A stretch of DNA of 64,000 nucleotides from Kiritimatiellia bacterium. Its GTDB lineage: Bacteria > Verrucomicrobiota > Kiritimatiellia > RFP12 > UBA1067. Positions 5,988 through 30,564 of this stretch are shown piece after piece (position 1 is the first letter of the stretch; each line of letters begins with the position of its first letter). Under the pieces are notes generated by a model. That model worked only from the letters and a program-made list of their open reading frames with translations. It made no database searches and was not told the origin of the DNA. The stretch spans positions 30,721-94,720 of the forward strand of contig JAZSOG010000027.1 of NCBI GenBank assembly GCA_045536845.1, read 5' to 3'. A program made the position numbers and the translations under genes.

Positions 5988-6646
5988 ATGAAAATGCCTT
6001 TCTCCATTGCCTTTGCTGCCATCGTGGCTTTCTTCGCCTCATCCGCGCCTGCCGCGACAGACGTCACCTGGACTGGCACGCCGCTTACCGCGAGCAGCAC
6101 GTCGATCCGCACCGACGGCACGCTCAAGTACGCCTACGCGCGTGGAGATTATACAGCCAACGGCGTTGCGTTTGTCGGCGTAGGAAACAAAATAATCAAT
6201 AATGCGGACTGCATCGCATGGGAAGCATCTTCTGGTGCAAGAGAAGGCCAGTCAAATCCGCCGGAAGACACTGAAGATGGCGGCTATAAGAATTTGCTAT
6301 TGTATGGCTGGTGGGCTAACACGAACCCGAACCCCAAGCCACGGAAGATTCAGCTGAACAATCTTGAGGATGGAAAGAGATATCTTGTCCAGATAATCCC
6401 TACCGCAATATAACGGAAACATTAAGCGCAGCTGTAACCGCACCGGACGGCGGAACAACTGTAAAATTTGTAGGCGATGGCTGGACGTATGGCAGTTCCT
6501 TGTCCGCCGAGTTCACGGCTGAGACTGCAACTGAGGAGTTCACACTTTCATATAGCAACCACTGTGCCATCAACGCCATCCAGGTGCGGGAGCTGCCGGC
6601 GGATGGGCCAGTGTCTTCGCGTGGGTTCTATTTTATCTGCAAGTAA
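5988..6646 (+). pseudogene. Single-module lectin-like secreted protein, interrupted by a frameshift near 6396-6400
   Basis: ORF 5988..6413 (signal peptide, IRTDGTLKYAYA, YLVQII) ends at a TAA. The rest of the same module (GDGWTYGSSLSAEF...INAIQVRELP...GFYFICK*) continues in the -1 frame to 6646. The join lies in the run atccc. Confidence 0.6.
6069..6595 (+). repeat. Lectin-like module copy P (in the frameshifted gene)
   Basis: W..SIRTDGTLKYAYA..NGVAF..RYLVQII / frameshift / GDGWTYGSS..INAIQVREL. Confidence 0.7.
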
Positions 6647-6706
6647 GCGGCCGTTGCTGACAAAGATTTCTCCTCGCATCGGCGCAAAATGTCGGTGAGT
6701 TGCTTT

Positions 6707-6749: not shown

Positions 6750-6780
6750 ATAGAGGCACACTCAGAAAGGTGTATCCGTA

Positions 6781-9700
6781 ATGAAAACAAAAATCCTAAA
6801 ATCGTTTGCAGCTTCTATCATCGCGGCCATGTCGCTTTGCGCATTCGGCATTGAAATCGGCAGCCAGGTCCCTGGCTCTGACCATTCTTCGGCTCCCTGC
6901 ACGCCGAAGGAGCGCACGGACGACTACCACAGGAACCACTTCAGCGCCGACATCAGCGGCAGCCAGGGCAAGGAGTTCGACATCGTCCTGTTCGGCGACT
7001 CGATCACCGACTTCTGGAACAGCAACCCGAACCTGAGCCTCGACAACAATCCCACCGACACGAAGACGTTCAACATGGGCATCGGCAGCGACCGCGTCCA
7101 GAACCTCCTGTGGCGTCTTCGGAACGGTGCGCTTGACGGCTATACCACGAAGTACTTCACGTTGATGGTCGGCATCAACAACGGCCACCAGAAGTGCATC
7201 GACCACAACGAGCATGCCGATCGCGCAGAGGATGTCGCCGAGTCGATCCGTCTCATGCTGTGCGAGATGGCGACGAAGCATCCGGACGCGAAGATCCTCC
7301 TGATGCCTATTCTCCCCTACAGCTTCGACAGCAAGTACTTCGAAGCGGCCGAAGTGACGGCCATGAGCGAAGCGGTCAACGACTACATCCTCCAGTTCGT
7401 CGACAACAAGCGCGTGTTCTGGGTGGACCTCCGCAGCCAGTACCTCCAGCAGAATTCGATGCCCAACAAGGTCTGCTACCGCGAGGGCGGCCACGGCGGC
7501 TACGACGCCGTGGGACTCTGCCTCCATCCGGAATTCTTCACCTATTCGGATTTCTGGAAGCCTGCGCTGACCAACGCGATGCACAAGTATCTCTCGGTTC
7601 CCGTCGGCCAGGCGCACGTGGCGGATCCCTCGCTCGGCTACGCCAAGGCCGCTCCGAACGCGGACGGCGCGGGCTCCGCGACGATCACGGTCTTCGGCAT
7701 CAACCTCGGAACGGACGCGAACGCGAACGCCGTGACGTCCTACGCGATTGACTACGAGCTCGACGGCGGCGCGAAGACGCGTGCGATTTCCAACCAGACG
7801 GGCGTTAGCAAGTCGTTCGTGATCCCGAATGTCGCCCTCGGCGACCATACCTGCAAGGTGACCGTCACGACGGCGGACAACAAGGAGCTCGTCACGCTTC
7901 TCGACTTCACGATGACCGAGCCGTGGTACGCAAGCCCGCTGCCGACCGACGACAGCGCCATCCGCACGGACGGCACGCTCAAGTATGCGTATGCGCCCTC
8001 GGCCTGCACGGTCAATGGCGTTACGTTCGCGGCTGCCGGCAACAACAACGCCGCCATCTCGGGCGACATCTCCTGGCCGTACAGCCAGACCTCCGGCGCG
8101 TCGGCGCCGAGCAGCATCTCCGGCGCCTACTATGAACTCCTGAACCGCTGCTGGTGGGCGAACCAGGGCGACAAGGAGGTGACGCTCAAGAACCTCACGC
8201 CCGGACACAACTACCTCGTCCAGATATTCGGCTACCGCAACTACAACAGCGACAGCAAGGCGCATGTCTGGATCAAGGAGTCGTACTGGGATCCGAATTT
8301 CATCAAGGTCTATGGCGACGGCTGGTCCTGCGGCGGTGTTCTTACAGGCGCCCTCACGGCAACGGCGGAAACCAAGACATTCACCATCAAGTCCGACGGC
8401 AATTACGGAATCAACGCCATCCAGGTGCGCGACCTCGGCGAGAGCGGCGTGCCGATCGTCGTCCAGCCGAAGGTCGGCTCGGTCACCGCCACGACGAACG
8501 AAACGGCGGCGACGATTTTTCTCTCGGGCATCGTGCTGGGGACGGACGATGCCGGTGAGAGCGCAAATTCCTATTCCGTCTCCTACTCGCTCAACAACGC
8601 GGCGTCCGTGGCTGCGCTTTCGGGCCAGACCGGTGCGTCCGCGCAGTTCACGATCTCCGGTCTCGCGGACGGCGAATACACCTGCGCGGTGACGATCACG
8701 ACAGACAAGAACAAGACCTCCGCGGCGAAGTCCGTCTCCTTCCGGATCGGCACACCGCCGCCCGAGGTGGTCGCGGCATCGATCGGCTCTGTGTCCGCGG
8801 TGACAAGCGGCAGCACTGCGACGATTTCGCTTTCAAGCGTCGTCATGGGAACGGACGACGCGGGCGTTGCGGCGTCCTCGTATTCCGTCGCCTATTCGCT
8901 GAACAGCGGATCAGCCGTGACGGCGCTCTCGAACCAGACCGGCGCCTCGGCTTCGTTCCAGATTGCGGATCTTGCCGACGGCAGCTACACGTGCGCCGTC
9001 ACGATCACGACCGACAAAGGCAAGGTCGCGTCGAAGTCGGTCAGCTTCACGATCAACACTTCCCTGCCGCCGGTACCGGTCGGGAGCTGGACCTCCGGCC
9101 CGATGTCCGCGGACGGCAGCACGATCCGCACGGATGGAGACCTTCTCTATGCCTATGCGGCGCAGAACGGAACGGTGGGCGGCGTTTCTTTTGTGCGTGA
9201 CGCCCCCCTTGGCTCGGGGGGGATGGTTTCCGCCTCGCCCGTGCCAGCCATGGGTGGAGGATCCTGGGGTACTGAAGGAGTGTCGGGTGACTTCGGAACC
9301 ATGCTCCAAAATGGCTGGAACTGGACGGGCGACGGCAACGAGCTCTCGTACACGCTCACGCTCAATGGGCTAACTGCAGGCAAGACTTATCTCGTTCAGC
9401 TCATTGCGCACAGGCAGTCGAACAGCATGCTTGTCTCGGCAAACGGTTCGCCTACGGCGCATGTCCACGGTAGCGACGAGTCAAACTGCAAATACGGCGC
9501 ATCCATCGTCGGCGTTTTCGTGGCCTCGGGCGCCTCGGCGACCGTCACCGTCACCTATACGAACCAGACGGGAGACCGTCCCCTTAACGCCATCCAGGTG
9601 CGCGAGCTCGGCGAAGGTGGCGGCGGCGGTGGCGAAGATCCTATCGATCCTGTCGACCCGACGACGCCTGTCTGCATGCTGACGATTCCAGAGAAGACGG

Positions 9701-10713
9701 GGCTTCAGCTCCAGTCGGTGACGACGAACGGCGTCGCGGTCGCGGCTGTCAGCGGAAGCTACTCTATTGTCTCGAACACGCAGGTCGCGGTGACGTTCGC
9801 CGCGGCTTCGGGCTACGAGATCACGGGCGGCAATCCGGTCGTGTTCACGCTCTCGGGCAACAAGACGTTCGTCGACGCCGACTATCCGGCTGTGCAGGCG
9901 ACGAGCGGCGGCGGCGGCGGTTCCGTCGAGACCGGCTGGACCGGCGGGGCTGCGGATGCGGAAGGGACCGTTTTCCGTACGGACGGGACGCTTCTCTACG
10001 CCTACGCCGTCCAGTCGGTGACGGTCAACGGAATTGCCTTCGCCGCGGACGCCGACCTGAATACGACCTACACGGCGGTTTCGCCGGATTTGGCCCAGAC
10101 GGACGGCAACTCGGGCAGCGAAAGCGTGACAGGAGACTTCGGCACGATGCTGAAGAACTCGTGGGAGTGGGCCAATACGACAAGCACGCTGACGATCACG
10201 CTCAAGGGGCTGACGGCCGGAAAGCGCTATCTCGCTCAGGTCCTCGCGCACAACCAATGGAGCGATACGCTGATCAGCGCCGGTGATCTTGATCCGATGG
10301 CCATGCGCGACACCAACAAGTACGGCGCCTCGCTTGTCTGCGTCTTCGATGCGACGGGCGAGACGGAGGACATGGCGATCAAGTATTCCGGCCCCGCCGG
10401 ATGGCGCGTCCTCAACGCCATCCAGGTGCGTGAGCTTCCCGCGAGCGAGCCTGTTACGGTCGACGCGCCGGTTATTGGCGGGGAAGGGGTCGACGTTCCG
10501 TTCGCGGTGTCGTCCGACAAGGTCGCGATCACGATCAGCAACGCCGCGTCGGGACACACCTACGGCTACAAGAAGTCGACGACGATTGCCGACCTCACGA
10601 ATGCCACGGTGGTCTATTTCACCGACCCGGCCGCTGTTGACGGTGTCCTGACGCTTGAGATACCGAAAGAGGCGAACGAGCCGAGCTGCTTCTACCAGAT
10701 AGTAGTCGAATAA
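6781..10713 (+). CDS. Giant exoprotein A: SGNH/GDSL esterase + 3 Ig-like domains + 3 lectin-like modules + TIPEKTG beta-domain + conserved C-terminal domain
   Basis: Signal peptide MKTKILKSFAASIIAAMSLCAFG. GDS block DIVLFGDSITDFW. Repeats of SYSVxYSL...TCAVTITTDK. Three IRTDG...NAIQVRELG modules. Ends in CFYQIVVE. Confidence 0.85.
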   Translation: MKTKILKSFAASIIAAMSLCAFGIEIGSQVPGSDHSSAPCTPKERTDDYHRNHFSADISGSQGKEFDIVLFGDSITDFWNSNPNLSLDNNPTDTKTFNMGIGSDRVQNLLWRLRNGALDGYTTKYFTLMVGINNGHQKCIDHNEHADRAEDVAESIRLMLCEMATKHPDAKILLMPILPYSFDSKYFEAAEVTAMSEAVNDYILQFVDNKRVFWVDLRSQYLQQNSMPNKVCYREGGHGGYDAVGLCLHPEFFTYSDFWKPALTNAMHKYLSVPVGQAHVADPSLGYAKAAPNADGAGSATITVFGINLGTDANANAVTSYAIDYELDGGAKTRAISNQTGVSKSFVIPNVALGDHTCKVTVTTADNKELVTLLDFTMTEPWYASPLPTDDSAIRTDGTLKYAYAPSACTVNGVTFAAAGNNNAAISGDISWPYSQTSGASAPSSISGAYYELLNRCWWANQGDKEVTLKNLTPGHNYLVQIFGYRNYNSDSKAHVWIKESYWDPNFIKVYGDGWSCGGVLTGALTATAETKTFTIKSDGNYGINAIQVRDLGESGVPIVVQPKVGSVTATTNETAATIFLSGIVLGTDDAGESANSYSVSYSLNNAASVAALSGQTGASAQFTISGLADGEYTCAVTITTDKNKTSAAKSVSFRIGTPPPEVVAASIGSVSAVTSGSTATISLSSVVMGTDDAGVAASSYSVAYSLNSGSAVTALSNQTGASASFQIADLADGSYTCAVTITTDKGKVASKSVSFTINTSLPPVPVGSWTSGPMSADGSTIRTDGDLLYAYAAQNGTVGGVSFVRDAPLGSGGMVSASPVPAMGGGSWGTEGVSGDFGTMLQNGWNWTGDGNELSYTLTLNGLTAGKTYLVQLIAHRQSNSMLVSANGSPTAHVHGSDESNCKYGASIVGVFVASGASATVTVTYTNQTGDRPLNAIQVRELGEGGGGGGEDPIDPVDPTTPVCMLTIPEKTGLQLQSVTTNGVAVAAVSGSYSIVSNTQVAVTFAAASGYEITGGNPVVFTLSGNKTFVDADYPAVQATSGGGGGSVETGWTGGAADAEGTVFRTDGTLLYAYAVQSVTVNGIAFAADADLNTTYTAVSPDLAQTDGNSGSESVTGDFGTMLKNSWEWANTTSTLTITLKGLTAGKRYLAQVLAHNQWSDTLISAGDLDPMAMRDTNKYGASLVCVFDATGETEDMAIKYSGPAGWRVLNAIQVRELPASEPVTVDAPVIGGEGVDVPFAVSSDKVAITISNAASGHTYGYKKSTTIADLTNATVVYFTDPAAVDGVLTLEIPKEANEPSCFYQIVVE
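7924..8439 (+). repeat. Lectin-like module copy A1
   Basis: WYASPLPTDDSAIRTDGTLKYAYA..NGVTF..NYLVQIFGY..GINAIQVRDLG. Confidence 0.75.
9088..9612 (+). repeat. Lectin-like module copy A2
   Basis: WTSGPMSADGSTIRTDGDLLYAYA..GGVSF..GDFGTML..TYLVQLIAH..PLNAIQVRELG. Confidence 0.8.
9631..9740 (+). repeat. 110-nt tract identical to 21274..21383 (gene A versus gene B)
   Basis: Base-by-base reading: ggcgaagatcctatcgatcctgtcgacccgacgacgcctgtctgcatgctgacgattccagagaagacggggcttcagctccagtcggtgacgacgaacggcgtcgcggt is present in both genes. Flanking sequence is similar but diverged. Confidence 0.85.
9937..10437 (+). repeat. Lectin-like module copy A3
   Basis: WTGGAADAEGTVFRTDGTLLYAYA..NGIAF..GDFGTML..RYLAQVLAH..VLNAIQVREL. 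Confidence 0.8.
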
Positions 10714-12633: not shown

Positions 12634-12639
12634 GGCGCT

Positions 12640-17958: not shown

Positions 17959-18002
17959 TACCCAGCTGGGTAATTGAGCTCGACGAATAGAATAGGTACA
18001 AT
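17959..18002 (+). promoter_or_regulatory. Perfect palindrome TACCCAGCTGGGTA + TTGAGC (-35) + TACAAT (-10), upstream of gene B
   Basis: Read directly. 17-nt spacer. Confidence 0.65.
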
Positions 18003-18005
18003 ACA

Positions 18006-18033
18006 GGCAGAAAATCAAACAGAGATTTCTGCC
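18006..18033 (+). promoter_or_regulatory. Inverted repeat GGCAGAAA-N12-TTTCTGCC ending at the start codon of gene B
   Basis: 8-bp perfect arms at 18006-18013 and 18026-18033. The ATG is at 18034. Confidence 0.5.
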
Positions 18034-21000
18034 ATGATAAAAACATTTAAATTCCTTCTTGCCTCTTCCCTCGCTTTTGCCGTGTCGAATGTCTTCGCTG
18101 CAACGCCAGTTCGCGCGAACACTGCGGCCTCTCGTCTTGACACCTGGTGGACTGTGCGCCACGCCGAGAAGGTCGCTGCGGTGGCTGACAGTTCCGTCAA
18201 GAAGGATATCGTCTTCATAGGCGACGAGCTGACGCAGGGATGGGAGACGACGGGCGCTTCTTCGCTCGCGTCGCACTTCGCCGGCGACAAGGCGATGTTC
18301 AACCTCGGCTTCAACGGGGACTGCACGGAGAACGTCCTCTGGCGCATCCAGAACGGCGAGCTCGGCAGCCCCAAGGCGATCTTCCTCATGGTCGGCGGCA
18401 ACAACGCCGCGATCTACACCGAGAGGGAGGAGCCCGTCGGAAAGACGTATCTGGGTGTCCGCGCGATCATCGACGAGCTCGTCGAGAGCGTCGGCGCGTC
18501 CAGGGTCGTCGTGCAGGCGGTACTCCCCCGCGGGCTCGACGAGTCCGATCCGCTGCGTCCGCGCAACGACCGCCTCAACATCGACGTCCGCGCGTACGCT
18601 CAGAAGAAGGGCTGCAGCTGGGTCGACATGTCGGACCTCTTCCTCGAGTCCGACCACCACACGCTGAAGACCTCGCTCTTCAACGCCGACCGCGCCACGC
18701 TGAACGCGTCCGGCTACGAAGTCTGGGCCCAGGCGGTCTTGCCGTACGTAAACGCCGCGGCGAGCGGCTCCGCGATGCCCGCCGACCTCGTGGCGACGGC
18801 GCGTCCCGAGATCGACCGCATTACGACGTTCCCGACGGCGACCAACGCCGATCTGCAGGACGCCTTCTGGCGGAAGTTCGAGGACGACGTGAAGCTCATA
18901 GGCGAAAACGGCAGAAGCTGCGACATCGTCCTTCTCGGCGACTCCCTCACGCAGAAATGGATGGAGGGGAACAGCGCCTCGTCCATGAACGGACTTGGCA
19001 GCAACGTCCTGAACCTCGGCCGGACCGGCGACTTCGTGGAGAACCTGCTGTGGCGCCTCAAGAGCGGCTGCATCGACGGCTATGCGACGAAGTTCTTCAA
19101 CCTGCTGATCGGCACGAACAACACCATCGGGAAGAATCCGAGCGAGGCTCCCGCGGACATCGCCGCAGGCGTGAGGGAGGTGCTCGACCTCGTTCTTGAG
19201 AAGCATCCAGAGTCGAAGATCCTCCTGATGCCGATCATTCCATACGGCTACACGAACGCGCAGAACAGCGCGAAGGGCGCTGCGCACTACGCCAACAACG
19301 AGGCGGCGAACGAGATCATCCGCACCTTCGCCGACGGCCAGCGCGTCATCCTCGTCGACGTCCGCAGCCAGTTCATGAACGCCGACGGGACCTACAAGGG
19401 CGAAATGTATCTCCAGGGGAATGGCGACTACCCCGCCCAGTTCCTTCACCTGACCACCAAGGCATACGAGGAGATTCTCGCGCCCGCGATATCGTCCGCC
19501 ATGGCGACGGCCGGCGCATCGTCCGTCGCGCTGCCGGCGATCGGCTCCGCCGCCGCGCAGGTAAGCGGAACGTCCGCGACGGTCACGCTTTCGGACGTGT
19601 CAAAGGGGACGGACAAGGACGGCCATGCGGCGGCTTCCTACACGGTTTCATACAAGCTCGACGCGAATGCCGAAGCGGCGCTTCCCGCGGCGGAGACGGG
19701 CGCCTCGGCCTCGGTCCAGTTCGACGGACTCGCCGACGGATGGCACACGTGCGCGGTCTGGGTCTCATCCGACGGCGTCGTGAAGTCGTCCGTCAAGCGC
19801 GTCAAGTTCCTGATCGACTCCCAGGCCGACGCCGTCGGCTGGAAGGTCGCGCCGATGGACGCGACGGGCTCGGCGTTCCGCAGCGACGGCACGCAGGTCT
19901 TCGCGCGCGGCTTCACCGGCCATACCGTCAACGGGGTCTCGTTCTCCGCTGGTTTCCCGAGCTCCGACCAGGCGTCTGTTTCGCCTTCGTCGCATTCCGG
20001 CGACGGCTGGACGGAGAACAACCCCGTGTTCAACGGAGGCTGGGTGTGGACCAAGAGCGATGCTTCGCTGGACATCGCCTTCACTGTGAAGGGACTTACA
20101 TCCGGGAAGAAGTACCTCGTCCAGATTCTCGCCGCCAACCACTGGAACAATTCCTCGACCACGATCTCCGCCGGCGACCTCGTTCCGTTCGAGGCCACCA
20201 AGCAGAACGACTACAAGTGCGGCGCCGTGATCTCGCGCGTGTTCGAGGCGACGGGCGCGCAGGAGACCGTGACCGTCACGTTCGCCACCTCCGGCAGCAA
20301 ATGCCTCGTCAAGGCCATTCAGCTCCGCGAGCTCGGCGAAGGCAGCGGAGAAGGTGGCGGCGAGGCGACGGTCGTCGCGCCGTCGATTGGGTCTGTCTCT
20401 GCGACCACGAATAGCAATGCGGCGACGATTTCGCTTTCCAATGTCGTTATGGGAACTGATGACGAGGGCGCTGCGGCGTCCTCTTATTCTATTGCCTATT
20501 CGCTTAACGGTGCTTCCGCCGTAACGGCACTCTCGAATCAGACAGGCGCTTCTGCCTCGTTTCAGATCGCGGACCTTGCCGATGGCAGCTATACGTGTGC
20601 CGTTACGATCACGACCGACAAGAACAAGACGGCGACGAAGTCTGTTTCCTTCACAATCGCCACGTCAAGCCAGGGCGGTGGCGGCGACGAGCCGGGTCCC
20701 GTGCCCGAGGCTGGCTGGACCGCAGGTCCGATGGCCTCGGACGGCAGTACGATCCGCACAGACGGCGCGCTCTTATATGCGTATGCGGTACAAGGAGGAA
20801 CGGTGGGTGGTGTGACCTTTGCGCGTGCCACTGATTTCGCAAATGCCGTTATGGTTTCTGCTTCGCCTACCTCCGCGGGGTACGTGTTCGCAGACTTCAT
20901 GAACGAGGGAGTGTCTGGCGACTTCGGACACATGCTTGAGGGCGGTTGGTACTGGGGGGGCAACGATGCCGCGGCCGGGGAGCTCTCGTTTGTCCTTACG

Positions 21001-24000
21001 CTTAAGGGACTGACGACAGGCAGAACCTACCTCCTCCAGCTTGTTTCTCATCGGCATTCCAACAGCACGCTTGTCTCGGCAAACGGTTCGACGCCAGTGC
21101 ATATCTACGGAACACACGATGGCACGAACTATACCTACGGCGCATCCATCGTTGGCGTATTCACGGCCTCGGGCGCAACGGCGGACTTCACCGTCACGTA
21201 TTCCGCAGCGTCGTCTGGCATGAGGCCCCTCAACGCCATCCAGGTCCGCGAGCTCGGCGAAGGTGGCGGCGGTGGCGAAGATCCTATCGATCCTGTCGAC
21301 CCGACGACGCCTGTCTGCATGCTGACGATTCCAGAGAAGACGGGGCTTCAGCTCCAGTCGGTGACGACGAACGGCGTCGCGGTGACGGCGGTCGGCGGAA
21401 GCTACTCTATCGTCTCGAACACGCAGGTGACGGTGACGTTCGCCGCGGCCTCGGGCTACGAAATCACGGGCGGAAATCCGATCGTCTTCACGCTCTCTAG
21501 CGACAAGACGTTCGTCGACGCCGACTATCCGACCGTGCAGGCGACGAGCGGTGGCGGTGGCGGCGATCCTGTCGAGACCGGCTGGACTGGCGCGGCTGCG
21601 ACGGCCAACGGGAGCTTTTTCAGCACGGACGGGACACTCCTCTATGCCTACGCCGTCCAGCCGGTGACGGTCAACGGAATCGCCTTCGCCGCAGATGCAG
21701 ATCTCAACACTGACAACACGACCTTGCAGCCTAATCTGGCTCAGACGGACGGCAACTCGGGCGACGAGGGCGTCGCAGGCGATTTCGGCACGATGCTGAA
21801 GAACTCGTGGGAGTGGGCCAACTCGACGAGTACGCTGACGATAACGCTCAAGAATCTGACGATCGGGAAGCGCTATCTTGCCCAGTTCTTCGCGCACAAC
21901 CAGTGGAGCGATGCGCTGATAAGCGCCGGCGATCTCGAAGCGATGGCCATGCGCAATGACAACAAGTACGGCGCCTCGCTTGTATACGTTTTCGAGGCGA
22001 TTGCAAACTCCGAGAGCGTCGTCTTGAAATATTCGGGAGCAGGTGGATGGCGCGCGCTCAACGCCGTGCAGGTGCGCGAGCTTGAAGGGGAGTCGCCCTA
22101 TGTCGACCCCGAGGGCAACATGGCGGAGGGGTGCGTCCTCAGGATCAGCGAGATACTGCCCAAGCCCACGGACGCGCGGACTCTGAACGGCATGGAGGGA
22201 ATGGACGTCAATGGACTCGAATCCGGCTGGGTCGAAGTCGAGAACACGTCCGACAAGTGGGCCGATCTCGCAGACTATCGCTTCATCCGCGTGAACCGCG
22301 GAAAGAAGACCGATCCCGCGGGCTACGGCAACTTCCCGTCGCGCCTTGTCCCGCCTCACGGTCGCGCGATATTCTACACGTCCGAACGCTATTCCAACAG
22401 CAAGGACAAGACGGTGAGCGCGTTCGCGGACGGAACGTTCGACGGCAAGCCGATGATCTTCGAGAACTACGGCGACATCCTCGTGTGGGGCGACAAGGTG
22501 AACCCGAAGAAATCGCCCTACGTGCGCCTCTACTATGCGCCGGTCAGCAATGCCAGCAATATCGTGAGCGTAGTCGACACGGTCGTCATTCCGAGCGACT
22601 TGCCAGAAGGGTGGTCGATCATCGTTGGCGACGCGGCGGAAGGCGAGGGCACGCGCCGTTGGATGTGCCCGACGCCTACGCGCGGAGCGGCGAACACGGC
22701 GACGACGGGCCTTATCCGCATTGGACCTAACGTAGGGCCTCTCTACGAGAAGGCGGGGCAGAAGAAAACCGACCTCGTCAGCGAGTTTGCGGCTCCCGTG
22801 CCGCCCGCCGTTCCGGGCGAGGACTATTCGGTGACGCTCCCTATCAACGGCGTGATGAATCCCGACGGAACGTTTACGCCTCGCGCGGCTGACCAGATAC
22901 AGTCCATCAAGTTCGTCTATCGCAAGGACCTCAACGACGCGACGCTCGTCACGAATGAAGTGAACCTGGCGACGAAGACGACCGACGCCAACTGGGGCGA
23001 TCGGTATACGGCCACGATTCCGTCGAGCTACTTCCCCGCGGCAGGTCACCTGATGCAGTGGAAGGTCCTGATCACCGACGGCGAGGGCGTGGAGTGGACC
23101 TCCCCGAGCTTCAACAACAAAGACGACGGCTACGAGTGGTACGGCACGATTGTCGAGCCTGATTCTGACACGCAGATGAGCGCGACGCTTCCGACGTGGC
23201 ACATGTTTGCGAGCGGCAACCACCTGACGCAGATGGACGTCGACGCCGACAAGCAGAATCTTTCGCTCGTTCCCCACAACGCGCGCGTCGCCATCTACGA
23301 TTCGTCGACATCCAACTACTACGACTATGTGCGGATCGACCTTCGCGGCAACACGTCCGCTGGCTTCACGAAGAAGGGCCACGGCCTCAGGTTCGCCAAG
23401 TCGCATCCCATGACGATGACCGACGCCGTGACGGGCGAGGCGGTCGAGGAGATCCGCAAGACCTCTCTCATCAGCGAGTTTGCCGACCCGAGCTACATGC
23501 GCCAGATGATTGCCTTCTGGCTGTGGCGCAAGATGGGGAACCTCGTTCCATTCGACTTCCCCGTCCGCTGCAACCTGAACGGCGAGTTCTACCAGCTCGC
23601 GTTCAACTCCGAGCGCTTCACGGACGAACTCATCGAGGATGTCTACGGACTCGACAAGTTCGGCTACGGCTACAAGAACGTCGGCACGCTGAGGAGCGGG
23701 TCGGGAACGACGGCAGGCGGAATCGAAAAGAAGACGCCGGACGACGAAGACGAATCGAACATCACCGTCCTCCAGAACGAGCTTCGCTCCAAGATAACGG
23801 CGGCGCAGCAGGTGTCCAGTTCGCCGGACGGAGGGTCCACCGGCCTCGACAATGCCGCGCTCACGAAGTTCGTCGTCCAGAAGTTTGACCTCCCTGCGTG
23901 GCTTAACTACCTCGCCTCCGCGCGCATCACCCAGGAGATGGACGACGTGTGGGCGAATGTCTGCGCTTACTACGACAACCCTGCGATGCTCCAGGGCGCG

Positions 24001-25629
24001 CGCGGCACGGGCACGTGGATGCCGCTCGGCTACGACTTCAACCTGAGCTTCGGCCAGTACTACCGCGACAGCGGCGTAGGCGGCAACGGCCTTTTCGCTA
24101 CGAACGACTGGTTCAAGTCCCACCCGTTCTACGGCGGTAGCCGCGTCAGGTGCTACTCGACGTCTTCCATGTCCACGACGATCAACTACGGCAACGACGG
24201 GTTCGAGGCCGTGTGGCAGTCCGCGAAGTTCCGCCGCCTCTACCTGCGCCGCCTCAGGACGCTGATGGACCAGGAACTCAAGGCGCCGGGCACGGCCGAG
24301 AGCGAGGTCCCCTTCATGGCGAAGATGCGCGAGATGGCTGACCTTATGCGTGCTGACGCCGCAAGCGACACGGCCAAGTGGCCCAACAACGGCACCGACA
24401 GCAATATCGACGTATGGTCCAGCCGTCCCGCAAATATGGACGCCGGCATCGACGACATCTGGAACAACTACGTCGTTCCGCGCCGCCAGCACCTCTATGT
24501 GACGCACTCCGTCACGAACACCGCGAAGGCCATCGGCTACGGCTCGCGCCTCAACGCAGGAATCCCCGAGGCGCAAAGCCCGATTGAGACGCTTGCGCCG
24601 AACATCACGGTCGACCTCTCGGGGCTCGCCGACGGCGTGGTCGTGATTTCCAACGGGAACAACGAGGTTGTCGACATGAGCGGATGGGTGCTCAAGACGG
24701 CCGTCGAGTGGACGCTTCCCGCCGGCACGGTGTGCGATGCACAGGACGCGATCTACGTCGTCGCGGATCGCCGCGCCTACGTAGCCGCGCACTCGGATGC
24801 GCTTACGGACCAGGTGATCGTCGGCAACGCGACCTTCTCCGACACGGCGGTCCTGCAGATCTTCGCCGCAGACGGCACGACGCAGATCCTTACGACGGAG
24901 CCGGACATCGGCGATCCCGACCAGGCCAATCTCCGCTTCCACACCATTTACGGCTCGACGCTTACAGGCGGCGGTGACGCCGGCGAGTTCATCGTCCTCA
25001 CGAACGTCTCGGACAAGGTCGTCAACCTTGAAGGTTTGCAGGTCTCCTGCGCGAAGACGAAGAACGGCGTTACGGACGCGCCGAAGTGCGCAATTACGCT
25101 CGGCGACGTAAACGTGCCGGCAGGCGGAAGCGTCAGACTTGACCAGGCGGACTATTCCGCGGCGGGCTGGACGAAGATCACCAACGGCGGCATCGTCATC
25201 AAGATCGTCGACAGGACTGGCGCCGTCGTGCAGATGGGCGAGGCGCAGTTCGGCCTTTACCCCGTGACGGACGAAGGAGGTTATGCTCTACAGGCGACGC
25301 GCTTCGACAACGAGACGCCGCTTGCGGCTACGACGGACGACTGGACGGCTGTCTTTGTCGAAGCCGCCGCGCCAGATGCGCCGGTGATCGGCGGTGGCGA
25401 AGGCGGAGTTGCGCCGATCACGGTAGGTGCGTCGTCCGTTTCGATCAACATAACAAATGCAAAGTCGGGTTCTACATACGGCTACAAGAAGTCTACGACG
25501 CTTGCTGGGCTCAAGGATGCTCAGGTCATCTACATGAACGTTCCTGCCGATGCCGACGGAAATCTCATCATTGAAATTCCGCGTGCGAACGGCGAGGCAT
25601 CCTGTTTCTACCAGATTGTTGTCGAATAA
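18034..25629 (+). CDS. Giant exoprotein B: 2x SGNH esterase + Ig-like domains + 3 lectin-like modules + LTD-CotH-LTD + conserved C-terminal domain
   Basis: Start moved to the ATG at 18034 (signal peptide MIKTFKFLLASSLAFAVSNVFA). GDS-type blocks DIVFIGDELTQGW and DIVLLGDSLTQKW. Lamin-tail-like ISEILPKP...WVEVENTS. CotH-like YVRIDLRGNTSAGFTKKGHGLRF...EFADPSYMRQ. Ends in CFYQIVVE. Confidence 0.85.
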   Translation: MIKTFKFLLASSLAFAVSNVFAATPVRANTAASRLDTWWTVRHAEKVAAVADSSVKKDIVFIGDELTQGWETTGASSLASHFAGDKAMFNLGFNGDCTENVLWRIQNGELGSPKAIFLMVGGNNAAIYTEREEPVGKTYLGVRAIIDELVESVGASRVVVQAVLPRGLDESDPLRPRNDRLNIDVRAYAQKKGCSWVDMSDLFLESDHHTLKTSLFNADRATLNASGYEVWAQAVLPYVNAAASGSAMPADLVATARPEIDRITTFPTATNADLQDAFWRKFEDDVKLIGENGRSCDIVLLGDSLTQKWMEGNSASSMNGLGSNVLNLGRTGDFVENLLWRLKSGCIDGYATKFFNLLIGTNNTIGKNPSEAPADIAAGVREVLDLVLEKHPESKILLMPIIPYGYTNAQNSAKGAAHYANNEAANEIIRTFADGQRVILVDVRSQFMNADGTYKGEMYLQGNGDYPAQFLHLTTKAYEEILAPAISSAMATAGASSVALPAIGSAAAQVSGTSATVTLSDVSKGTDKDGHAAASYTVSYKLDANAEAALPAAETGASASVQFDGLADGWHTCAVWVSSDGVVKSSVKRVKFLIDSQADAVGWKVAPMDATGSAFRSDGTQVFARGFTGHTVNGVSFSAGFPSSDQASVSPSSHSGDGWTENNPVFNGGWVWTKSDASLDIAFTVKGLTSGKKYLVQILAANHWNNSSTTISAGDLVPFEATKQNDYKCGAVISRVFEATGAQETVTVTFATSGSKCLVKAIQLRELGEGSGEGGGEATVVAPSIGSVSATTNSNAATISLSNVVMGTDDEGAAASSYSIAYSLNGASAVTALSNQTGASASFQIADLADGSYTCAVTITTDKNKTATKSVSFTIATSSQGGGGDEPGPVPEAGWTAGPMASDGSTIRTDGALLYAYAVQGGTVGGVTFARATDFANAVMVSASPTSAGYVFADFMNEGVSGDFGHMLEGGWYWGGNDAAAGELSFVLTLKGLTTGRTYLLQLVSHRHSNSTLVSANGSTPVHIYGTHDGTNYTYGASIVGVFTASGATADFTVTYSAASSGMRPLNAIQVRELGEGGGGGEDPIDPVDPTTPVCMLTIPEKTGLQLQSVTTNGVAVTAVGGSYSIVSNTQVTVTFAAASGYEITGGNPIVFTLSSDKTFVDADYPTVQATSGGGGGDPVETGWTGAAATANGSFFSTDGTLLYAYAVQPVTVNGIAFAADADLNTDNTTLQPNLAQTDGNSGDEGVAGDFGTMLKNSWEWANSTSTLTITLKNLTIGKRYLAQFFAHNQWSDALISAGDLEAMAMRNDNKYGASLVYVFEAIANSESVVLKYSGAGGWRALNAVQVRELEGESPYVDPEGNMAEGCVLRISEILPKPTDARTLNGMEGMDVNGLESGWVEVENTSDKWADLADYRFIRVNRGKKTDPAGYGNFPSRLVPPHGRAIFYTSERYSNSKDKTVSAFADGTFDGKPMIFENYGDILVWGDKVNPKKSPYVRLYYAPVSNASNIVSVVDTVVIPSDLPEGWSIIVGDAAEGEGTRRWMCPTPTRGAANTATTGLIRIGPNVGPLYEKAGQKKTDLVSEFAAPVPPAVPGEDYSVTLPINGVMNPDGTFTPRAADQIQSIKFVYRKDLNDATLVTNEVNLATKTTDANWGDRYTATIPSSYFPAAGHLMQWKVLITDGEGVEWTSPSFNNKDDGYEWYGTIVEPDSDTQMSATLPTWHMFASGNHLTQMDVDADKQNLSLVPHNARVAIYDSSTSNYYDYVRIDLRGNTSAGFTKKGHGLRFAKSHPMTMTDAVTGEAVEEIRKTSLISEFADPSYMRQMIAFWLWRKMGNLVPFDFPVRCNLNGEFYQLAFNSERFTDELIEDVYGLDKFGYGYKNVGTLRSGSGTTAGGIEKKTPDDEDESNITVLQNELRSKITAAQQVSSSPDGGSTGLDNAALTKFVVQKFDLPAWLNYLASARITQEMDDVWANVCAYYDNPAMLQGARGTGTWMPLGYDFNLSFGQYYRDSGVGGNGLFATNDWFKSHPFYGGSRVRCYSTSSMSTTINYGNDGFEAVWQSAKFRRLYLRRLRTLMDQELKAPGTAESEVPFMAKMREMADLMRADAASDTAKWPNNGTDSNIDVWSSRPANMDAGIDDIWNNYVVPRRQHLYVTHSVTNTAKAIGYGSRLNAGIPEAQSPIETLAPNITVDLSGLADGVVVISNGNNEVVDMSGWVLKTAVEWTLPAGTVCDAQDAIYVVADRRAYVAAHSDALTDQVIVGNATFSDTAVLQIFAADGTTQILTTEPDIGDPDQANLRFHTIYGSTLTGGGDAGEFIVLTNVSDKVVNLEGLQVSCAKTKNGVTDAPKCAITLGDVNVPAGGSVRLDQADYSAAGWTKITNGGIVIKIVDRTGAVVQMGEAQFGLYPVTDEGGYALQATRFDNETPLAATTDDWTAVFVEAAAPDAPVIGGGEGGVAPITVGASSVSINITNAKSGSTYGYKKSTTLAGLKDAQVIYMNVPADADGNLIIEIPRANGEASCFYQIVVE
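19840..20337 (+). repeat. Lectin-like module copy B1 (most divergent)
   Basis: WKVAPMDATGSAFRSDGTQVFARG..NGVSF..KYLVQILAA..LVKAIQLRELG. Confidence 0.7.
20716..21258 (+). repeat. Lectin-like module copy B2
   Basis: WTAGPMASDGSTIRTDGALLYAYA..GGVTF..GDFGHML..TYLLQLVSH..PLNAIQVRELG. Confidence 0.8.
21274..21383 (+). repeat. 110-nt tract identical to 9631..9740
   Basis: See the partner copy at 9631..9740. Confidence 0.85.
21583..22083 (+). repeat. Lectin-like module copy B3
   Basis: WTGAAATANGSFFSTDGTLLYAYA..NGIAF..GDFGTML..RYLAQFFAH..ALNAVQVREL. Confidence 0.8.
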
Positions 25630-25638: not shown

Positions 25639-25682
25639 TACCCAGCTGGGTAATTGAGCTCGCTGAATGGAAGATGTACAAT
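25639..25682 (+). promoter_or_regulatory. Perfect palindrome TACCCAGCTGGGTA + TTGAGC (-35) + TGTACAAT (-10), upstream of gene C
   Basis: Read directly. 17-nt spacer. The block from the palindrome into the signal-peptide codons is near-identical to 17957-18100. Confidence 0.65.
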
Positions 25683-25685
25683 AGT

Positions 25686-25713
25686 GGCAGAAAATCAAAC
25701 AGAGATTTCTGCC
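25686..25713 (+). promoter_or_regulatory. Inverted repeat GGCAGAAA-N12-TTTCTGCC ending at the start codon of gene C
   Basis: Identical 28-nt element. The ATG is at 25714. Confidence 0.5.
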
Positions 25714-28700
25714 ATGACAAAAACATTTAAATTCCTTGTAGCCGTTTCCCTCGCATTTGCCGCGTCAAATCTTTTCGCGACGGTAGAGTTCGTGAAGAAG
25801 ACGTTTGTCGCGTCAAACAAGCTGCAGCTTCCCTACCGCGCCGCGGAGAAGGCCGACCCGAACGGTGGCAAGGTGCCTGTCGTCGTCTTTCTTCACGGAT
25901 ACGGTCAGTGTGGCGTCGACAACTCGTTTACAATCAACGAGATGACGAACATCAAGAGTTATCTCGACAGCACGGGCAGTGACGGCTACAAGCTTCTCGT
26001 TCCGCAGTGCCCTAACGATGTCAAGTGGGCGGAGTTCGCAATGAGCTCTACCACCTGCACGTTCCAGGAAAAGCCGTCTTCGGCGCTCGTTGCGGTTTTC
26101 GATCTTCTCGACTCCTACGCCGCGATGGCGGACGTTGACGCCAACCGCATCTACGTCACAGGGCTTTCGATGGGCGGACACGGCACGTGGGACGCGATCT
26201 GCCGCCGTCCCGACTTCTTCGCCGCGGCGATGCCGTGCTGCGGTGGCGGCGATCCTGTCCGCGCTGCCGATATCGCGCACGTCCCTGTTCTGGCTGTCCA
26301 CAACCGCGGCGATCCGACCATTCCCGTCGAGCAGACCGAGGGCATCGTCACTGCGCTCAGGGCGCTCGGGTCGGACGTGATCTTCGAGAAGCTCGAGAAC
26401 AACAGCCACGACGCCTGGACGACATGCTATTCCAGGACGGACGATGTCACGGCGGGCGCGCCGAACCACCGGTTCGTCTGGCTGTTCGCGCAGAACCGCG
26501 CGACGAACAACCGCCCGAGGTATCCGCGTATCACGGAGCTCACCGCGGCGCCGAGCGGTTCGAACGCGACGATCTCGCTCACGGGCGTGGTCTTGGGCAC
26601 GGACGCCGATTCGGTTCCCGCGACCAAGTATTCCGTCACCTACAAGCTCGATGGTGCGGCAAACGCCGTGACGGCGCTTTCTAACCAGACAGCGGATAGC
26701 TCCTTCACGCTTGAAGGCCTTGAGGACGGCAACCACACCTGCGAGGTGACGATTACCACGGACAAGGGGCGGACGAAGACGAAGTCGGTCGTCTTCTACG
26801 TCAACACGTCCGCCGTCTCTGACGTCTGGACCTCGGCCGCGATGGACGCGTCCGGCAGTTCCTTCCGTACCGATGGCACGCTTCTCTATGCCTATTCCAG
26901 CCACGGCGGAACGGTCAACGGAATCAAATTCGTGCGAGACGTAAATCTTCAGGGTAGTTCCTTGGAGATCGCCTTTGCGCCAAACATCGACAGCTTCACC
27001 AGCGAACTTATGAACGAAGAAGTCAGCGGCGACTTTGGAGTCATGCTTAGCAACGGCTGGTACTGGAACAAGGACGACTCAAGCATGCGCACGTTCAAGT
27101 TGACGCTTTCTGGCCTTACGGGCGGGAAAAGCTATCTCGTCCAGTTCCTCTCGCACAACTACTGGAACAACAATATGACCGTCTCGGCGAACGGATGCAG
27201 TCCTGTGCATATCCATGGGGAGAACGAGGCGAGCGGGAAGTACGGCGCGCTTATTACCGGGACCTTCACGGCCATGGGGGACACGAAGGAAGTTACGATT
27301 ACGTTCTCCAACGTCGACAGCAAAATCCCTCTCAACGCCCTCCAGGTTCGCAAACTTCCCGACGGCGGTTCGGGCGGCGGAGATGGGCCTGGTCCTGTAG
27401 ACCCTGAACCCACGCCCGTGTGCGCGCTCACGATTCCCGCTAAGACAGGGCTTGCGCTTCAGTCGGTGACGACGAACGGCGTCGCGGTGTCAGCCGTCGG
27501 CGGGAGCTACACGATCGTCTCGAACACGCAGGTCACCGTCAATTTCGCCGCGGCCGATGGCTATGAAATCGTGAGCGGCAACCCGGTCGTGTTCACTATT
27601 ACGGGCAACAAGACGTTCGCCGCCGCCGACTACCCCGTCGTGCAGGCGACGAGCGGCGGTGGCGGCGACGAGCCAGGCCCTGTGCTCGATGCGGGCTGGA
27701 CTGCAACGGCGCTTGGCTCGACGAGCGCTTCAATTAGGACAGACGGCACGCTAGTCTACGCTTATGCTTACGGTGCCTACACTGTCAACGGCGTCACGTT
27801 CATTAGCGGGGGGACAGCCGGCATCGACAACGCCAATTGCACCGTGAACATCACGCACAACGCAAGTACGACGCCACCCGCTGACACCGAATCGGGTGAC
27901 TACAAAAATCTGCTGGGTGCAGGTTGGTACGGGTACGAAGGCGTCCGAACGGTCACTTTGAGAAATCTCACGGTCGGCAAGAAGTATCTCGTCCAGATCA
28001 TCGCGTCTCGGAGCGATTTCGCGACGCAGTTTGCGAAGGCTCCAGACAGCGTGACGACAATCAAGTTCGGCGGTACAGGCTGGGAATACGGCGGTTCGCT
28101 TACCGGGGTGTTCACAGCCGAAGGAGCGACTCAGGAGTTCACGATTACCTACACGGGAAACTCCTGGATCAACGGGATACAGGTTCGCGAGATCGGCGAG
28201 AGTGGCGGCGAACCAGGCCCAGTCGATCCCGAGCCCACGCCAACTTGCTCTCTGACAATCCCCGCGAAGACGGGGATTGTTCTTCAGTCGGTGACGACGA
28301 ACGGAGTCGCAGTCGCGGCGGTCGCGGGCAGCTACACGATTGTCTCGAATACGCAGGTAACTGTTAATTTTGCCGCAGCCGATGGCTACGAGATCGTGAG
28401 CGGCAACCCGGTCGTCTTCACACTCTCGGGCGACAAGACGTTCTCCGCCGCCGACTATCCGATCGTGCAGCAGACAAGCGGCGGTGGTGGTGGCGACGAG
28501 CCAGGCCCAGTGCCGCAAGTCGGTTGGACCGTCGGCCCAATGAGCTCAGATGGCAGCACGATCCGCACGGACGGAACGCTCCTTTATGCGTATAGTTCTC
28601 CCGGCGGAACCGTGGGCGGCGTTCCGTTCGCCCGTGCTGTCAGCCTCGGCGCCGCAAGCATGGTCTCCGCCTCGCCCGCCTCCGCGGGGAACAGCGGGGG

Positions 28701-30564
28701 AGGTTTCGGCGACGGCGGGGCGACGGGCGACTTCGGCAACATGCTTCGGGACGGCTGGTATTGGACGGGAGAGGAAGTGCCGCTTTCGTTCACGCTCACG
28801 CTCTCGGGGCTGACGGCCGGCCACTCCTATCTCGTCCAGCTCGTTTCGCATCGGACGTCCAACAGCACGACCGTTTCGGCGAATGGCTCGACGCCCGTGT
28901 ACGTCCACGGAACCCACGACGGCGTGGACTACACCTATGGCGCCACCCTCGTCGGCATCTTCACGGCCACGGGCGCGACGGCGGACATCACCGTCACCTA
29001 TCCGACCGGTACGGGCAACCGGCCCCTCAACGCCATCCAGGTGCGCGACCTCGGCGAGAGTTCGGGTGGCGGAGGGTCGGGTGGTGGCGAGACGGTCGAG
29101 CCGATTGTCCCCGGACCGGACACCACCAACACGCTGCATCTCGCAAAGATTGCAGAATATGCTTTTGCTTCGAATGGATGCGGTGCGATCACGTATTCGG
29201 GACAAGGCGGGGTCTTCTACGTCCTTCAGGACCACGACGACGACAACTACGCGAGGATTCATCCCCTCGCGCTCGGAATCGATCCTTCCACAGGCGCGAT
29301 TCTGTCGCAAACTCTTGGTACGGCATTTACGCCTGCAGGTCTTCGCGACGCCGAGGGGCTTGCGCTCGATCCGCTCTCTGGCACATTGTGGGCGAGCTCC
29401 GAATGGACGCCGCCGACTATTTCCGAGTTCAGTCTCGATGGCGCCGCGACAGGCTGCACGGCGCCGGTTCCGTCGATTCAGCGCGACAAGCTCCGTTCCA
29501 ACCTCTCGCTCGAGTCGCTGACGATCTCCCCCGATGGACTCACGATGTGGACCGCGAACGAACAGGCGCTCACGTGCGACGGCGAGTCCTCGAGCGGCAA
29601 CACGAATGTTGCCACCGTTGTTCGCCTCACGCGCTTTACGCGCGAGACGGCGCAGGACAACTGGCAGGCCGCCGGAGAGTGGGCGTATGCATGCGATCCG
29701 TGTGCTAATGCTACATTCGCAGAGTGCGGACTATCGGGGCTCTGTGCGTTGCCGGATGGTTCGCTTTTGGCACTCGAGCGCGAAGTCAGTATTACCACCT
29801 GGGGGCGGTGCCGCATTTATCGCATAACGACCGGTGCACTTGCGGCGGCAACAGAGGTTTCCAATCTTTCCTCGGTGACCAACGCCACGGTTTCCCTGGT
29901 CGCGAAGGGTAGTCCTCTCGTGTCTTTCACTGGCACGGACTTGAACAACATCATAGTGTACGAGGGTATAGCGCTTGGTCCGAAGCTGGGCGATGGCTCG
30001 CGTTCCCTCGTCCTTGTTTCGGACGGCGGTGCCACGATGACGAAGACCTACGGGCTCCTCTCTGTTACTGCAAAGACCGTCAGCCGCATCTGCGCGTTGA
30101 AGCTTACGGGGCTTGCGGACGACGGAGAGCCGGCATTGATTCAGGACTGGCCCGCGAATCCCGACGTTGCGATCACGGATGAAACGCGTCCTTCTGATCT
30201 AGGCATAGTTGCCGGGGCCTTTGCGTCGTCCGGCACCACGACTGCGGAGCTTCGCAAGCTTTCTCGCTGGGCGAGCGCGCACAATGTGCCCTACGCGGGA
30301 GTGGATGTGAACTCCATGACTTTTCACGCTAATGGAAACCCCGGCACTCTGCATGCAACGGCGTACTTGCTCAACTGCGCCGTCGCAGAAGTCGAGGAGA
30401 GTTCGGCTGCGTTCAAGTTCACCGCTATTACGCCTGGAATGGTTCCGACCATCGAAGGCAATTTCAACGGACGCGTGACGGTGTACGGCGCAGATGAACT
30501 TGCCGGACCTTGGCAGATCGCCACCGAGCAGCATCACTTCTTCAAGGCGACGCTGACGCGCTGA
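25714..30564 (+). CDS. Giant exoprotein C: alpha/beta-hydrolase esterase + Ig-like domain + 3 lectin-like modules + 2 TIPAKTG beta-domains + phytase-like (esterase-like) beta-propeller
   Basis: Start moved to the ATG at 25714 (signal peptide MTKTFKFLVAVSLAFAASNLFA). Nucleophile elbow GLSMGGHG. Modules as in A and B. C-terminal region with AEGLALDP...LSLESLTISPDGLTMWTANEQAL, typical of the phytase-like family. Confidence 0.85.
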   Translation: MTKTFKFLVAVSLAFAASNLFATVEFVKKTFVASNKLQLPYRAAEKADPNGGKVPVVVFLHGYGQCGVDNSFTINEMTNIKSYLDSTGSDGYKLLVPQCPNDVKWAEFAMSSTTCTFQEKPSSALVAVFDLLDSYAAMADVDANRIYVTGLSMGGHGTWDAICRRPDFFAAAMPCCGGGDPVRAADIAHVPVLAVHNRGDPTIPVEQTEGIVTALRALGSDVIFEKLENNSHDAWTTCYSRTDDVTAGAPNHRFVWLFAQNRATNNRPRYPRITELTAAPSGSNATISLTGVVLGTDADSVPATKYSVTYKLDGAANAVTALSNQTADSSFTLEGLEDGNHTCEVTITTDKGRTKTKSVVFYVNTSAVSDVWTSAAMDASGSSFRTDGTLLYAYSSHGGTVNGIKFVRDVNLQGSSLEIAFAPNIDSFTSELMNEEVSGDFGVMLSNGWYWNKDDSSMRTFKLTLSGLTGGKSYLVQFLSHNYWNNNMTVSANGCSPVHIHGENEASGKYGALITGTFTAMGDTKEVTITFSNVDSKIPLNALQVRKLPDGGSGGGDGPGPVDPEPTPVCALTIPAKTGLALQSVTTNGVAVSAVGGSYTIVSNTQVTVNFAAADGYEIVSGNPVVFTITGNKTFAAADYPVVQATSGGGGDEPGPVLDAGWTATALGSTSASIRTDGTLVYAYAYGAYTVNGVTFISGGTAGIDNANCTVNITHNASTTPPADTESGDYKNLLGAGWYGYEGVRTVTLRNLTVGKKYLVQIIASRSDFATQFAKAPDSVTTIKFGGTGWEYGGSLTGVFTAEGATQEFTITYTGNSWINGIQVREIGESGGEPGPVDPEPTPTCSLTIPAKTGIVLQSVTTNGVAVAAVAGSYTIVSNTQVTVNFAAADGYEIVSGNPVVFTLSGDKTFSAADYPIVQQTSGGGGGDEPGPVPQVGWTVGPMSSDGSTIRTDGTLLYAYSSPGGTVGGVPFARAVSLGAASMVSASPASAGNSGGGFGDGGATGDFGNMLRDGWYWTGEEVPLSFTLTLSGLTAGHSYLVQLVSHRTSNSTTVSANGSTPVYVHGTHDGVDYTYGATLVGIFTATGATADITVTYPTGTGNRPLNAIQVRDLGESSGGGGSGGGETVEPIVPGPDTTNTLHLAKIAEYAFASNGCGAITYSGQGGVFYVLQDHDDDNYARIHPLALGIDPSTGAILSQTLGTAFTPAGLRDAEGLALDPLSGTLWASSEWTPPTISEFSLDGAATGCTAPVPSIQRDKLRSNLSLESLTISPDGLTMWTANEQALTCDGESSSGNTNVATVVRLTRFTRETAQDNWQAAGEWAYACDPCANATFAECGLSGLCALPDGSLLALEREVSITTWGRCRIYRITTGALAAATEVSNLSSVTNATVSLVAKGSPLVSFTGTDLNNIIVYEGIALGPKLGDGSRSLVLVSDGGATMTKTYGLLSVTAKTVSRICALKLTGLADDGEPALIQDWPANPDVAITDETRPSDLGIVAGAFASSGTTTAELRKLSRWASAHNVPYAGVDVNSMTFHANGNPGTLHATAYLLNCAVAEVEESSAAFKFTAITPGMVPTIEGNFNGRVTVYGADELAGPWQIATEQHHFFKATLTR
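26827..27357 (+). repeat. Lectin-like module copy C1
   Basis: WTSAAMDASGSSFRTDGTLLYAYS..NGIKF..GDFGVML..SYLVQFLSH..PLNALQVRKL. Confidence 0.8.
27697..28197 (+). repeat. Lectin-like module copy C2
   Basis: WTATALGSTSASIRTDGTLVYAYA..NGVTF..KYLVQIIAS..GTGWEYGGSL..WINGIQVREIG (closest to copy P). Confidence 0.8.
28525..29055 (+). repeat. Lectin-like module copy C3
   Basis: WTVGPMSSDGSTIRTDGTLLYAYS..GGVPF..GDFGNML..SYLVQLVSH..PLNAIQVRDLG. Confidence 0.8.

Follow-up and report, generated by a model that had tools for sequence, protein, structure and literature searches.

What is the module that recurs ten times in a set of secreted proteins encoded on a single contig of a rumen Kiritimatiellia bacterium? 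The stretch in question is a 64,000-nucleotide window (GenBank assembly GCA_045536845.1, contig JAZSOG010000027.1, positions 30,721 to 94,720 of the forward strand), in which the plus strand between about 6.0 and 30.6 kb carries three very large genes, which encode exoproteins A, B and C, and a small one, gene P. An earlier note, made from the sequence alone, described ten copies of a lectin-like module in these genes, one in the frameshifted gene and three in each exoprotein, and could not assign them to a named family. The module is probably a non-catalytic jelly roll of the galactose-binding type, belonging to a large uncurated family and most likely binding glycans, with a fucose- or galactose-bearing ligand as a guess.

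Ten copies of one module

The count and its distribution were borne out when the whole window was searched in six frames (hmmsearch) with a profile of the family. Ten copies of about 170–185 residues were found and nothing further, nine of them intact (three each in A, B and C) and the tenth, in gene P, broken in its reading frame. Domain E-values per copy ranged from about 1e-42 to 3e-65. The profile includes the window's own ten copies, and independent support therefore has to come from other genomes, whose proteins were matched by a profile of the ten copies down to E = 2e-67. Judged by these scores, the repeat is far above chance.

All copies lie on the plus strand. Exoprotein A carries A1 (7915–8442; GDGW subtype; independent domain E-value 2e-55), A2 (9079–9615; VSANGS subtype; 4e-58), which supplied the sequence for structure modeling, and A3 (9928–10443; ISAGDL subtype; 3e-56). 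Exoprotein B carries the divergent copy B1 (19831–20340; 1e-41), followed by B2 (20707–21261; VSANGS subtype; 8e-57) and B3 (21574–22089; ISAGDL subtype; 1e-51). In exoprotein C the corresponding copies are C1 (26818–27363; VSANG-like subtype; 1e-56), C2 (27688–28200; GTGWEYGG subtype; 3e-65) and C3 (28516–29058; VSANGS subtype; 5e-59). The module of gene P was recovered by the six-frame search in two frames, at 6060–6398 and 6422–6601.

When the ten copies are aligned with one another, identity averages 51% per column and 17 columns are invariant; the alignment reproduces the consensus that had been proposed, with the conserved stretches W..G..RTDG.L.YAYA, TV.GV.F, GDFG.ML, L.GLT.G..YLVQ, YGAS and NAIQVR. 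The terminal N[AG]IQV strand may resemble the N[AG][IL]E[IV] with which malectin-type domains end. Two subtypes and a third group of copies had also been proposed, and the identity matrix supports all three: A2, B2 and C3 are 62–68% identical in pairs, and C1 is about 47% identical to those three; A3 and B3 are 76% identical; A1, C2 and P range from 41 to 52% among themselves. One correction is required. B1 is an outlier, at most 39% identical to any other copy, and it has the ISAGDL segment alone in common with A3 and B3. Variation between the subtypes falls between the conserved strands, in alignment columns ~40–70 and ~120–150, and may have a functional meaning, for example several binding specificities.

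A large family without a curated model

Does the module belong to any named family? The libraries searched were Pfam-A (2025 copy), NCBIfam r20 and the PDB sequences, the last with three profiles of rising diversity, and against all three the lack of an assignment held. A HMMER search against Pfam, which the earlier note had proposed as a check, returned no model that covers the module, whether in exoproteins A, B and C, in the ten isolated modules (E ≤ 10), in 55 full-length relatives or in 32 diverse family domains. NCBIfam gave nothing for the modules, nor in the relatives scanned. Malectin (PF11721) and Malectin_like (PF12819) were unmatched even at E ≤ 10 among the ten modules and the 32 diverse relatives, and were absent from the full proteins. 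Neither CBM_6 (PF03422) nor CBM35 (PF16990), both models of carbohydrate-binding modules (CBMs), matched any module in the same two sets, and CBM_6 was found only as a separate domain of one relative. CBM_4_9 (PF02018) matched one of the 32 diverse relatives (E = 5.6e-4, short of the gathering score for membership) and none of the ten window modules; CBM64 likewise matched one of the 32, at E = 0.05.

The sole recurrent Pfam signal came from fn3-type models and was sub-threshold, covering some 25–30 residues around TLxxLTxGxxYLVQ (profile positions ~46–75). The PDB sequences gave the same fn3 motif (in fibronectin and titin) and noise only, and the one lectin signal at this level was EclA (6yf6; E = 0.41). 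No paper describing the domain was found in the literature on Kiritimatiellae CBMs, on new CBM families or on PEP-CTERM proteins near fucosidases. By these searches, the module is a large family without a curated model in Pfam-A or NCBIfam.

How large the family is became apparent when 1.84 billion cluster representatives were searched with a profile: 3,997 proteins passed E ≤ 1e-3, or about 4,000 clusters at 50% identity, and stricter limits of E ≤ 1e-10 and E ≤ 1e-30 left 2,387 and 286. The largest number of copies in a single protein is 18 or 19, according to the profile chosen, and many family proteins consist of three or four tandem modules followed by an unannotated tail. The 446 full-length domain instances, drawn from the best 150 proteins and the matches of the first search, fell into 141 groups by greedy clustering with a 40% identity cut-off.

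Among species-representative genomes, the close relatives come from rumen and gut metagenome-assembled genomes (MAGs) of Kiritimatiellae and from one Chitinivibrionales MAG; the best match in the scan of GTDB species representatives, at 86% identity, was a rumen Kiritimatiellae MAG. A distant branch is made up of proteins of about 236 residues in which a signal peptide precedes a single module and a PEP-CTERM anchor (PF07589) follows directly after it, in MAGs labelled Verrucomicrobiae, Ca. Binatia and Ca. Acidoferrales, with an Opitutaceae relative in the first search. No PEP-CTERM anchor was found in A, B, C or P, by sequence reading or in the Pfam and NCBIfam scans. The relatives are recorded as "hypothetical" or as "PEP-CTERM sorting domain-containing protein".

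A predicted jelly-roll fold

The AlphaFold2 model of A2, built from a 69-sequence alignment, is confident (predicted local distance difference test 92.9; predicted template-modeling score 0.90) and all-beta, composed of some 15 strands and a single short helix. A second model, of the distant PEP-CTERM relative P0261, has the same core (predicted local distance difference test 86), followed by a C-terminal helix that corresponds to the anchor. In Foldseek searches of the PDB neither model found a close structure, and the weak matches were nearly all sugar-binding jelly rolls: CBM35, CBM6, CBM61, CBM16, a domain of glycoside hydrolase (GH) family GH101, the binding module MiXBM, human malectin, the malectin-like ectodomains of plant ANXUR, BuGUS-2, the C-domain of the lectin EclA, and the receptor-binding domains of the Ib/CDTb and Cry toxins. 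Template-modeling (TM) scores were below 0.5 throughout, except for MiXBM, which is part of a xanthan lyase and reached 0.52–0.59 when normalized to the target.

For A2, query-normalized TM scores (TMq) ranged from 0.34 to 0.48. The lowest E-value belonged to the CBM35 of Pc1,3Gal43A (7byx; E = 6e-5, TMq 0.34) and the highest TMq, 0.48, to BuGUS-2, a GH2 glucuronidase that has a CBM57 domain; the aligned part may be either the CBM57 or the GH2 N-terminal domain, which likewise has a jelly-roll fold. Further CBM matches were the CBM35 entry 4qb2 (target-normalized TM, TMt, 0.46), 2w46 from the comparison with CBM6/CBM35 (TMt 0.44), the CBM6 entry 2y8k, the CBM61 2xom and the CBM16 2zez. The P0261 model matched human malectin (9ikp_A; E = 1.4e-3, TMq 0.33, TMt 0.40) and ANXUR1/2 (TMq 0.36–0.46). 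At the level of fold class, the models make the module clearly a galactose-binding-domain-like jelly roll, the class of malectin/CBM57, CBM6, CBM35 and CBM16. The earlier suggestion of a malectin- or CBM-type beta-sandwich was thus right at that level, given two confident models and their Foldseek neighbors, weak as the matches are.

How close does the module come to any of these? Like malectin/CBM57 and the plant malectin-like domains (PF11721, PF12819), it is a beta-sandwich of ~170–190 residues, galactose-binding-like in fold and appended to enzymes or displayed on the surface, but it has no Pfam match to them at any threshold and TM scores below 0.5. With CBM6, CBM35, CBM16 and CBM61 it has in common that these are non-catalytic, fused to carbohydrate-active enzymes and esterases, and often present in several copies; it is, however, 30–50 residues longer, aligns with TMq of 0.3–0.4 and 10–18% identity, and has no HMM match. 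CBM6 and CBM35 typically have Ca2+ sites. In the window copies D19 and N170 are conserved, and D19 is not invariant across the family. The receptor-binding domains of Ib and CDTb, Cry domain III and the EclA C-domain (23% identity) recurred among the Foldseek matches (probability ~1.0, TMq ~0.4), but they belong to another biological context, score weakly and have no sequence family in common with the module.

The likeness to fn3 (PF00041) is confined to the motif TLxxLTxGxxYxVxV. An fn3 identity was rejected: the match is local (about 29 of ~175 residues), no stretch passes alone, the modeled topology has roughly twice the strands (~15 against 7), and fn3 was not among the Foldseek matches listed. 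The motif would rather be a tyrosine-corner-like structural element than a sign of fn3 homology.

What does the module do?

Across the 141 representatives the invariant residues are (in A2 numbering) W4, G20, A25, F38, L98, Y104, Q107, G140, F147, A149, Q173 and R175. The set contains no D, E, H, S, C or K, which makes a catalytic role unlikely; that role was rejected, and the module is probably non-catalytic, as far as residue conservation can tell.

The partners of the module point toward sugars. Among 45 multidomain relatives they include GDSL in seven, GH29 in three, GH16 in two, a beta-helix in four, and CBM_6 and Laminin_G_3 in one each. Neighboring genes in the window encode a beta-helix protein, a GH27 enzyme that includes NPCBM, GH106, a 3-keto-disaccharide hydrolase, a pair of GH29 enzymes, an L-fucose isomerase and GH97. 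The L-fucose isomerase and the two GH29 alpha-L-fucosidases, one of which is fused to an alpha/beta hydrolase domain, occupy 49595–55027 on the minus strand, about 20 kb downstream of the module genes. Elsewhere, four of the six single-module PEP-CTERM relatives examined adjoin an L-fucose catabolic cluster that includes an SSF transporter, two short-chain dehydrogenases, an MR/MLE dehydratase and an Amidohydro_2 lactonase-like gene, with an FAA-hydrolase in two of the loci. The cluster is accompanied by GH29 or GH95 fucosidases and often by a GH27 with NPCBM.

Fold, fusion partners, neighborhoods and the lack of catalytic-type invariant residues together suggest glycan binding, and the leading guess for the ligand is a glycan that bears fucose or galactose. 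The modules had been described as binding units that fold on their own and are joined to esterase or kinase domains; this architecture is borne out, and binding is plausible from the partners, the neighborhoods and the invariant residues. If it occurs, three copies of differing subtypes, carried on immunoglobulin (Ig)-like or X85 spacers (see below), would tether the esterase domains of A, B and C to their polysaccharide substrate through multivalent binding (avidity) that is possibly also multi-specific. The stand-alone secreted module of gene P would then act as a free lectin, and the PEP-CTERM-anchored module of soil Verrucomicrobiota as a lectin displayed on the surface.

Several observations weigh against this. 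Two of the six PEP-CTERM contexts contain no fucose genes, and the four fucose-linked relatives are 49–66% identical to one another and may represent one orthologous locus. Kiritimatiellae genomes are rich in fucosidases anyway, so that fucose genes 20 kb away in the window are weak evidence. Two of the partners, CotH kinase and LTD, are not carbohydrate-active enzymes. Lastly, with TM scores below 0.5 for nearly all structural matches, the models leave homology to any particular CBM unclear.

Might the module instead hold the exoenzymes on the cell? As a surface retention or adhesion domain, it would bind the cell's own envelope, its exopolymer or a partner protein. Relatives do carry differing anchors alongside the module (PEP-CTERM in some, a C-terminal domain of ~60–86 residues in others), the many proteins with merely three or four tandem modules and an unannotated tail would suit such a role, and toxin receptor-binding domains are among the structural neighbors. 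Cultured Kiritimatiellae are reported to produce sulfated exopolymers (PMC7356697). However, proteins that already bear a PEP-CTERM anchor or the C-terminal domain need no second retention device, and glycoside hydrolase fusions and adjoining sugar-catabolic loci indicate substrate recognition, which leaves retention unlikely as the role of the module.

It is quite unlikely, too, that the module belongs, as a divergent member, to an already defined CAZy family, such as CBM57/malectin or one created recently, which either lacks a solved structure and a model in Pfam or NCBIfam or lies beyond the reach of HMMER. Malectin, ANXUR and a GH2 with CBM57 do occur among the Foldseek matches. On the other hand, neither the malectin, CBM_6 and CBM35 models nor any other CBM model matched the ten modules at E = 10, the 32 diverse members yielded just the single CBM_4_9 and CBM64 matches, the PDB sequences were matched at the fn3 motif alone, and the top structural TM scores were 0.3–0.5. 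The PDB sequence and fold searches exclude close kinship solely to CBMs with solved structures.

A more far-reaching proposal, and a very unlikely one, is that the module forms the binding half of a surface display system specific to the Planctomycetes–Verrucomicrobia–Chlamydiae (PVC) superphylum, which would attach exoenzymes, as well as free proteins of lectin type, to the envelope glycan or the exopolymer of the cell itself. Such a system would include interchangeable C-terminal sorting signals, namely PEP-CTERM, the CFYQIVVE-type domain described below and short hydrophobic tails. If true, it would be a new way of organizing extracellular enzymes, in the role that cohesin–dockerin or S-layer homology (SLH) systems have elsewhere.

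A ligand-free, fn3- or Ig-like spacer that pushes the catalytic domains away from the cell would accord with fn3 as the only sequence-database signal (the LTxGxxYxV motif) and with the wealth of other spacer-like domains in A, B and C, but is very unlikely given how short and sub-threshold the individual fn3 matches are, the ~15 modeled strands and structural matches to CBMs rather than to fn3, the existence of stand-alone single-module proteins, secreted or anchored, that would make no sense as spacers, and the conservation of the polar residues Q107, Q173 and R175 in the representatives.

Under the glycan-binding reading, what would the family add? New CBM-like families turn up regularly, and this one is a useful annotation gap in which the fold and the functional kind are already known, not a new class of mechanism. 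Its ~4,000 clusters include many giant multidomain exoproteins of gut and soil Verrucomicrobiota that are annotated as "hypothetical" or by their anchor alone, and a curated model (in Pfam, and in CAZy if binding were shown) would annotate a large share of their unexplained mass. Should the ligand turn out to be a glycan decorated with fucose or in some other way, the module would offer a way into the capture of complex acetylated and fucosylated polysaccharides by Kiritimatiellae and their relatives, both in soil and in the rumen, as well as new glycan-binding reagents.

Exoproteins A, B and C and their companion domains

Exoprotein A (6781..10713, plus strand; 1310 residues) consists of a signal peptide, a GDSL domain, Ig, A1, Ig, Ig, A2, X85, A3 and a C-terminal domain. 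Exoprotein B (18034..25629, plus strand, in an open reading frame from 17974), which is separated from A by three unrelated genes, has a signal peptide, two GDSL domains, Ig, B1, Ig, B2, X85, B3, an LTD/CotH/LTD segment and a C-terminal domain. Exoprotein C (25714..30564, plus strand, in an open reading frame from 25654) has a signal peptide, an alpha/beta esterase of the DLH/PHB-depolymerase type, Ig, C1, X85, C2, X85, C3, a phytase-like domain and a C-terminal region. The catalytic partners (GDSL in A; two GDSL, CotH and LTD in B; esterase and phytase-like in C) are thus those that had been named from the sequence. Signal peptides are visible at the N-termini of all three proteins by sequence reading. 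For B and C the start codons are most likely the internal ATGs at 18034 and 25714, and products beginning there are present as such in a public protein collection. The first 125 nucleotides of the two open reading frames (17974–18098 and 25654–25778), which include the region before the ATG and the signal peptide, are 86% identical; this suggests a duplicated 5′ leader and signal region.

Gly-rich linkers had been taken to separate the modules. They are present, but they are not the sole separators: each module is preceded by a small extra domain, either Ig-like (~96 residues) or X85 (~83 residues), and the Gly-rich stretches flank these. The Ig-like domain has six copies (A 8773..9060 on the plus strand, A 7678–7914, A 8467–8754, B 19534–19821, B 20377–20664 and C 26524–26808) with weak Big_13/fn3 matches in Pfam. 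The X85 domain (PVCMLTIPEKTGL..., also given as PVCMLTIPEKTGLQLQSVTTNGVAV...) has four copies that are 79–92% identical, at 9664..9912 in A (plus strand), 21307–21555 in B, and 27412–27660 and 28237–28479 in C. It has no Pfam match and is a second unannotated domain. The cassettes of Ig, module, X85 and module in A and B are 77% identical in DNA across 1.7 kb and are therefore paralogous.

A and B end in a domain of ~86 residues terminating in CFYQIVVE (10453..10710, plus strand, in A; 25375–25626 in B), which is 60% identical between the two and had no match in Pfam or NCBIfam. Distant single-module relatives have a similar tail (...FYILRTQ) where their sister proteins have a PEP-CTERM anchor. 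This exchange, a "choice of anchor" pattern, suggests that the CFYQIVVE-type domain is a candidate for an unrecognized sorting or attachment domain. The same domain type also concerns the relatives P0001, P0016, P0272, P0277, P0299 and P0311. In the C-terminal part of C (29176–30564) the last ~140 residues (...HHFFKATLTR), which are unannotated, recur after the single module of the relative P0080 (...HHFYRAILTR).

Gene P

Is gene P a gene at all? It extends over 5988..6646 on the plus strand and would encode a signal peptide, one module (~6060–6601) and a short hydrophobic tail. Compared with an intact orthologous locus that is 92% identical in DNA, a single base is missing after position 6397. 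The intact orthologues P0006 and P0011, of 219 residues, have exactly this composition, and relatives have kept the gene order of a HisKA_3 kinase, a beta-helix protein, a stand-alone module and a GDSL giant protein. Gene P is therefore a real, conserved gene, which in this window is either a recent pseudogene or the result of an assembly error. In the stand-alone Kiritimatiellae relatives P0002, P0006, P0011, P0032 and P0070 a Pro-rich stretch precedes the short hydrophobic C-terminal tail, with endings such as ...KPAVITVR, ...GGVIIVN and ...RGLFFICK. From their sequence, these tails may be a lineage-specific sorting signal.

Other genes in the window

When 6 kb of the region was compared with plasmids by megablast, nothing matched. 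Five further open reading frames of 352–1126 residues, at 10753–12633, 14772–17942, 30621–34001, 42344–43402 and 46151–49105, have no Pfam family (E ≤ 1e-3 or 1e-5). The glycan-utilization genes are broken up by a gene for a GmrSD_N and HNH endonuclease, resembling a type IV restriction system, which lies on the minus strand at 43772–44860 in a stretch of lower GC content (0.55–0.57).

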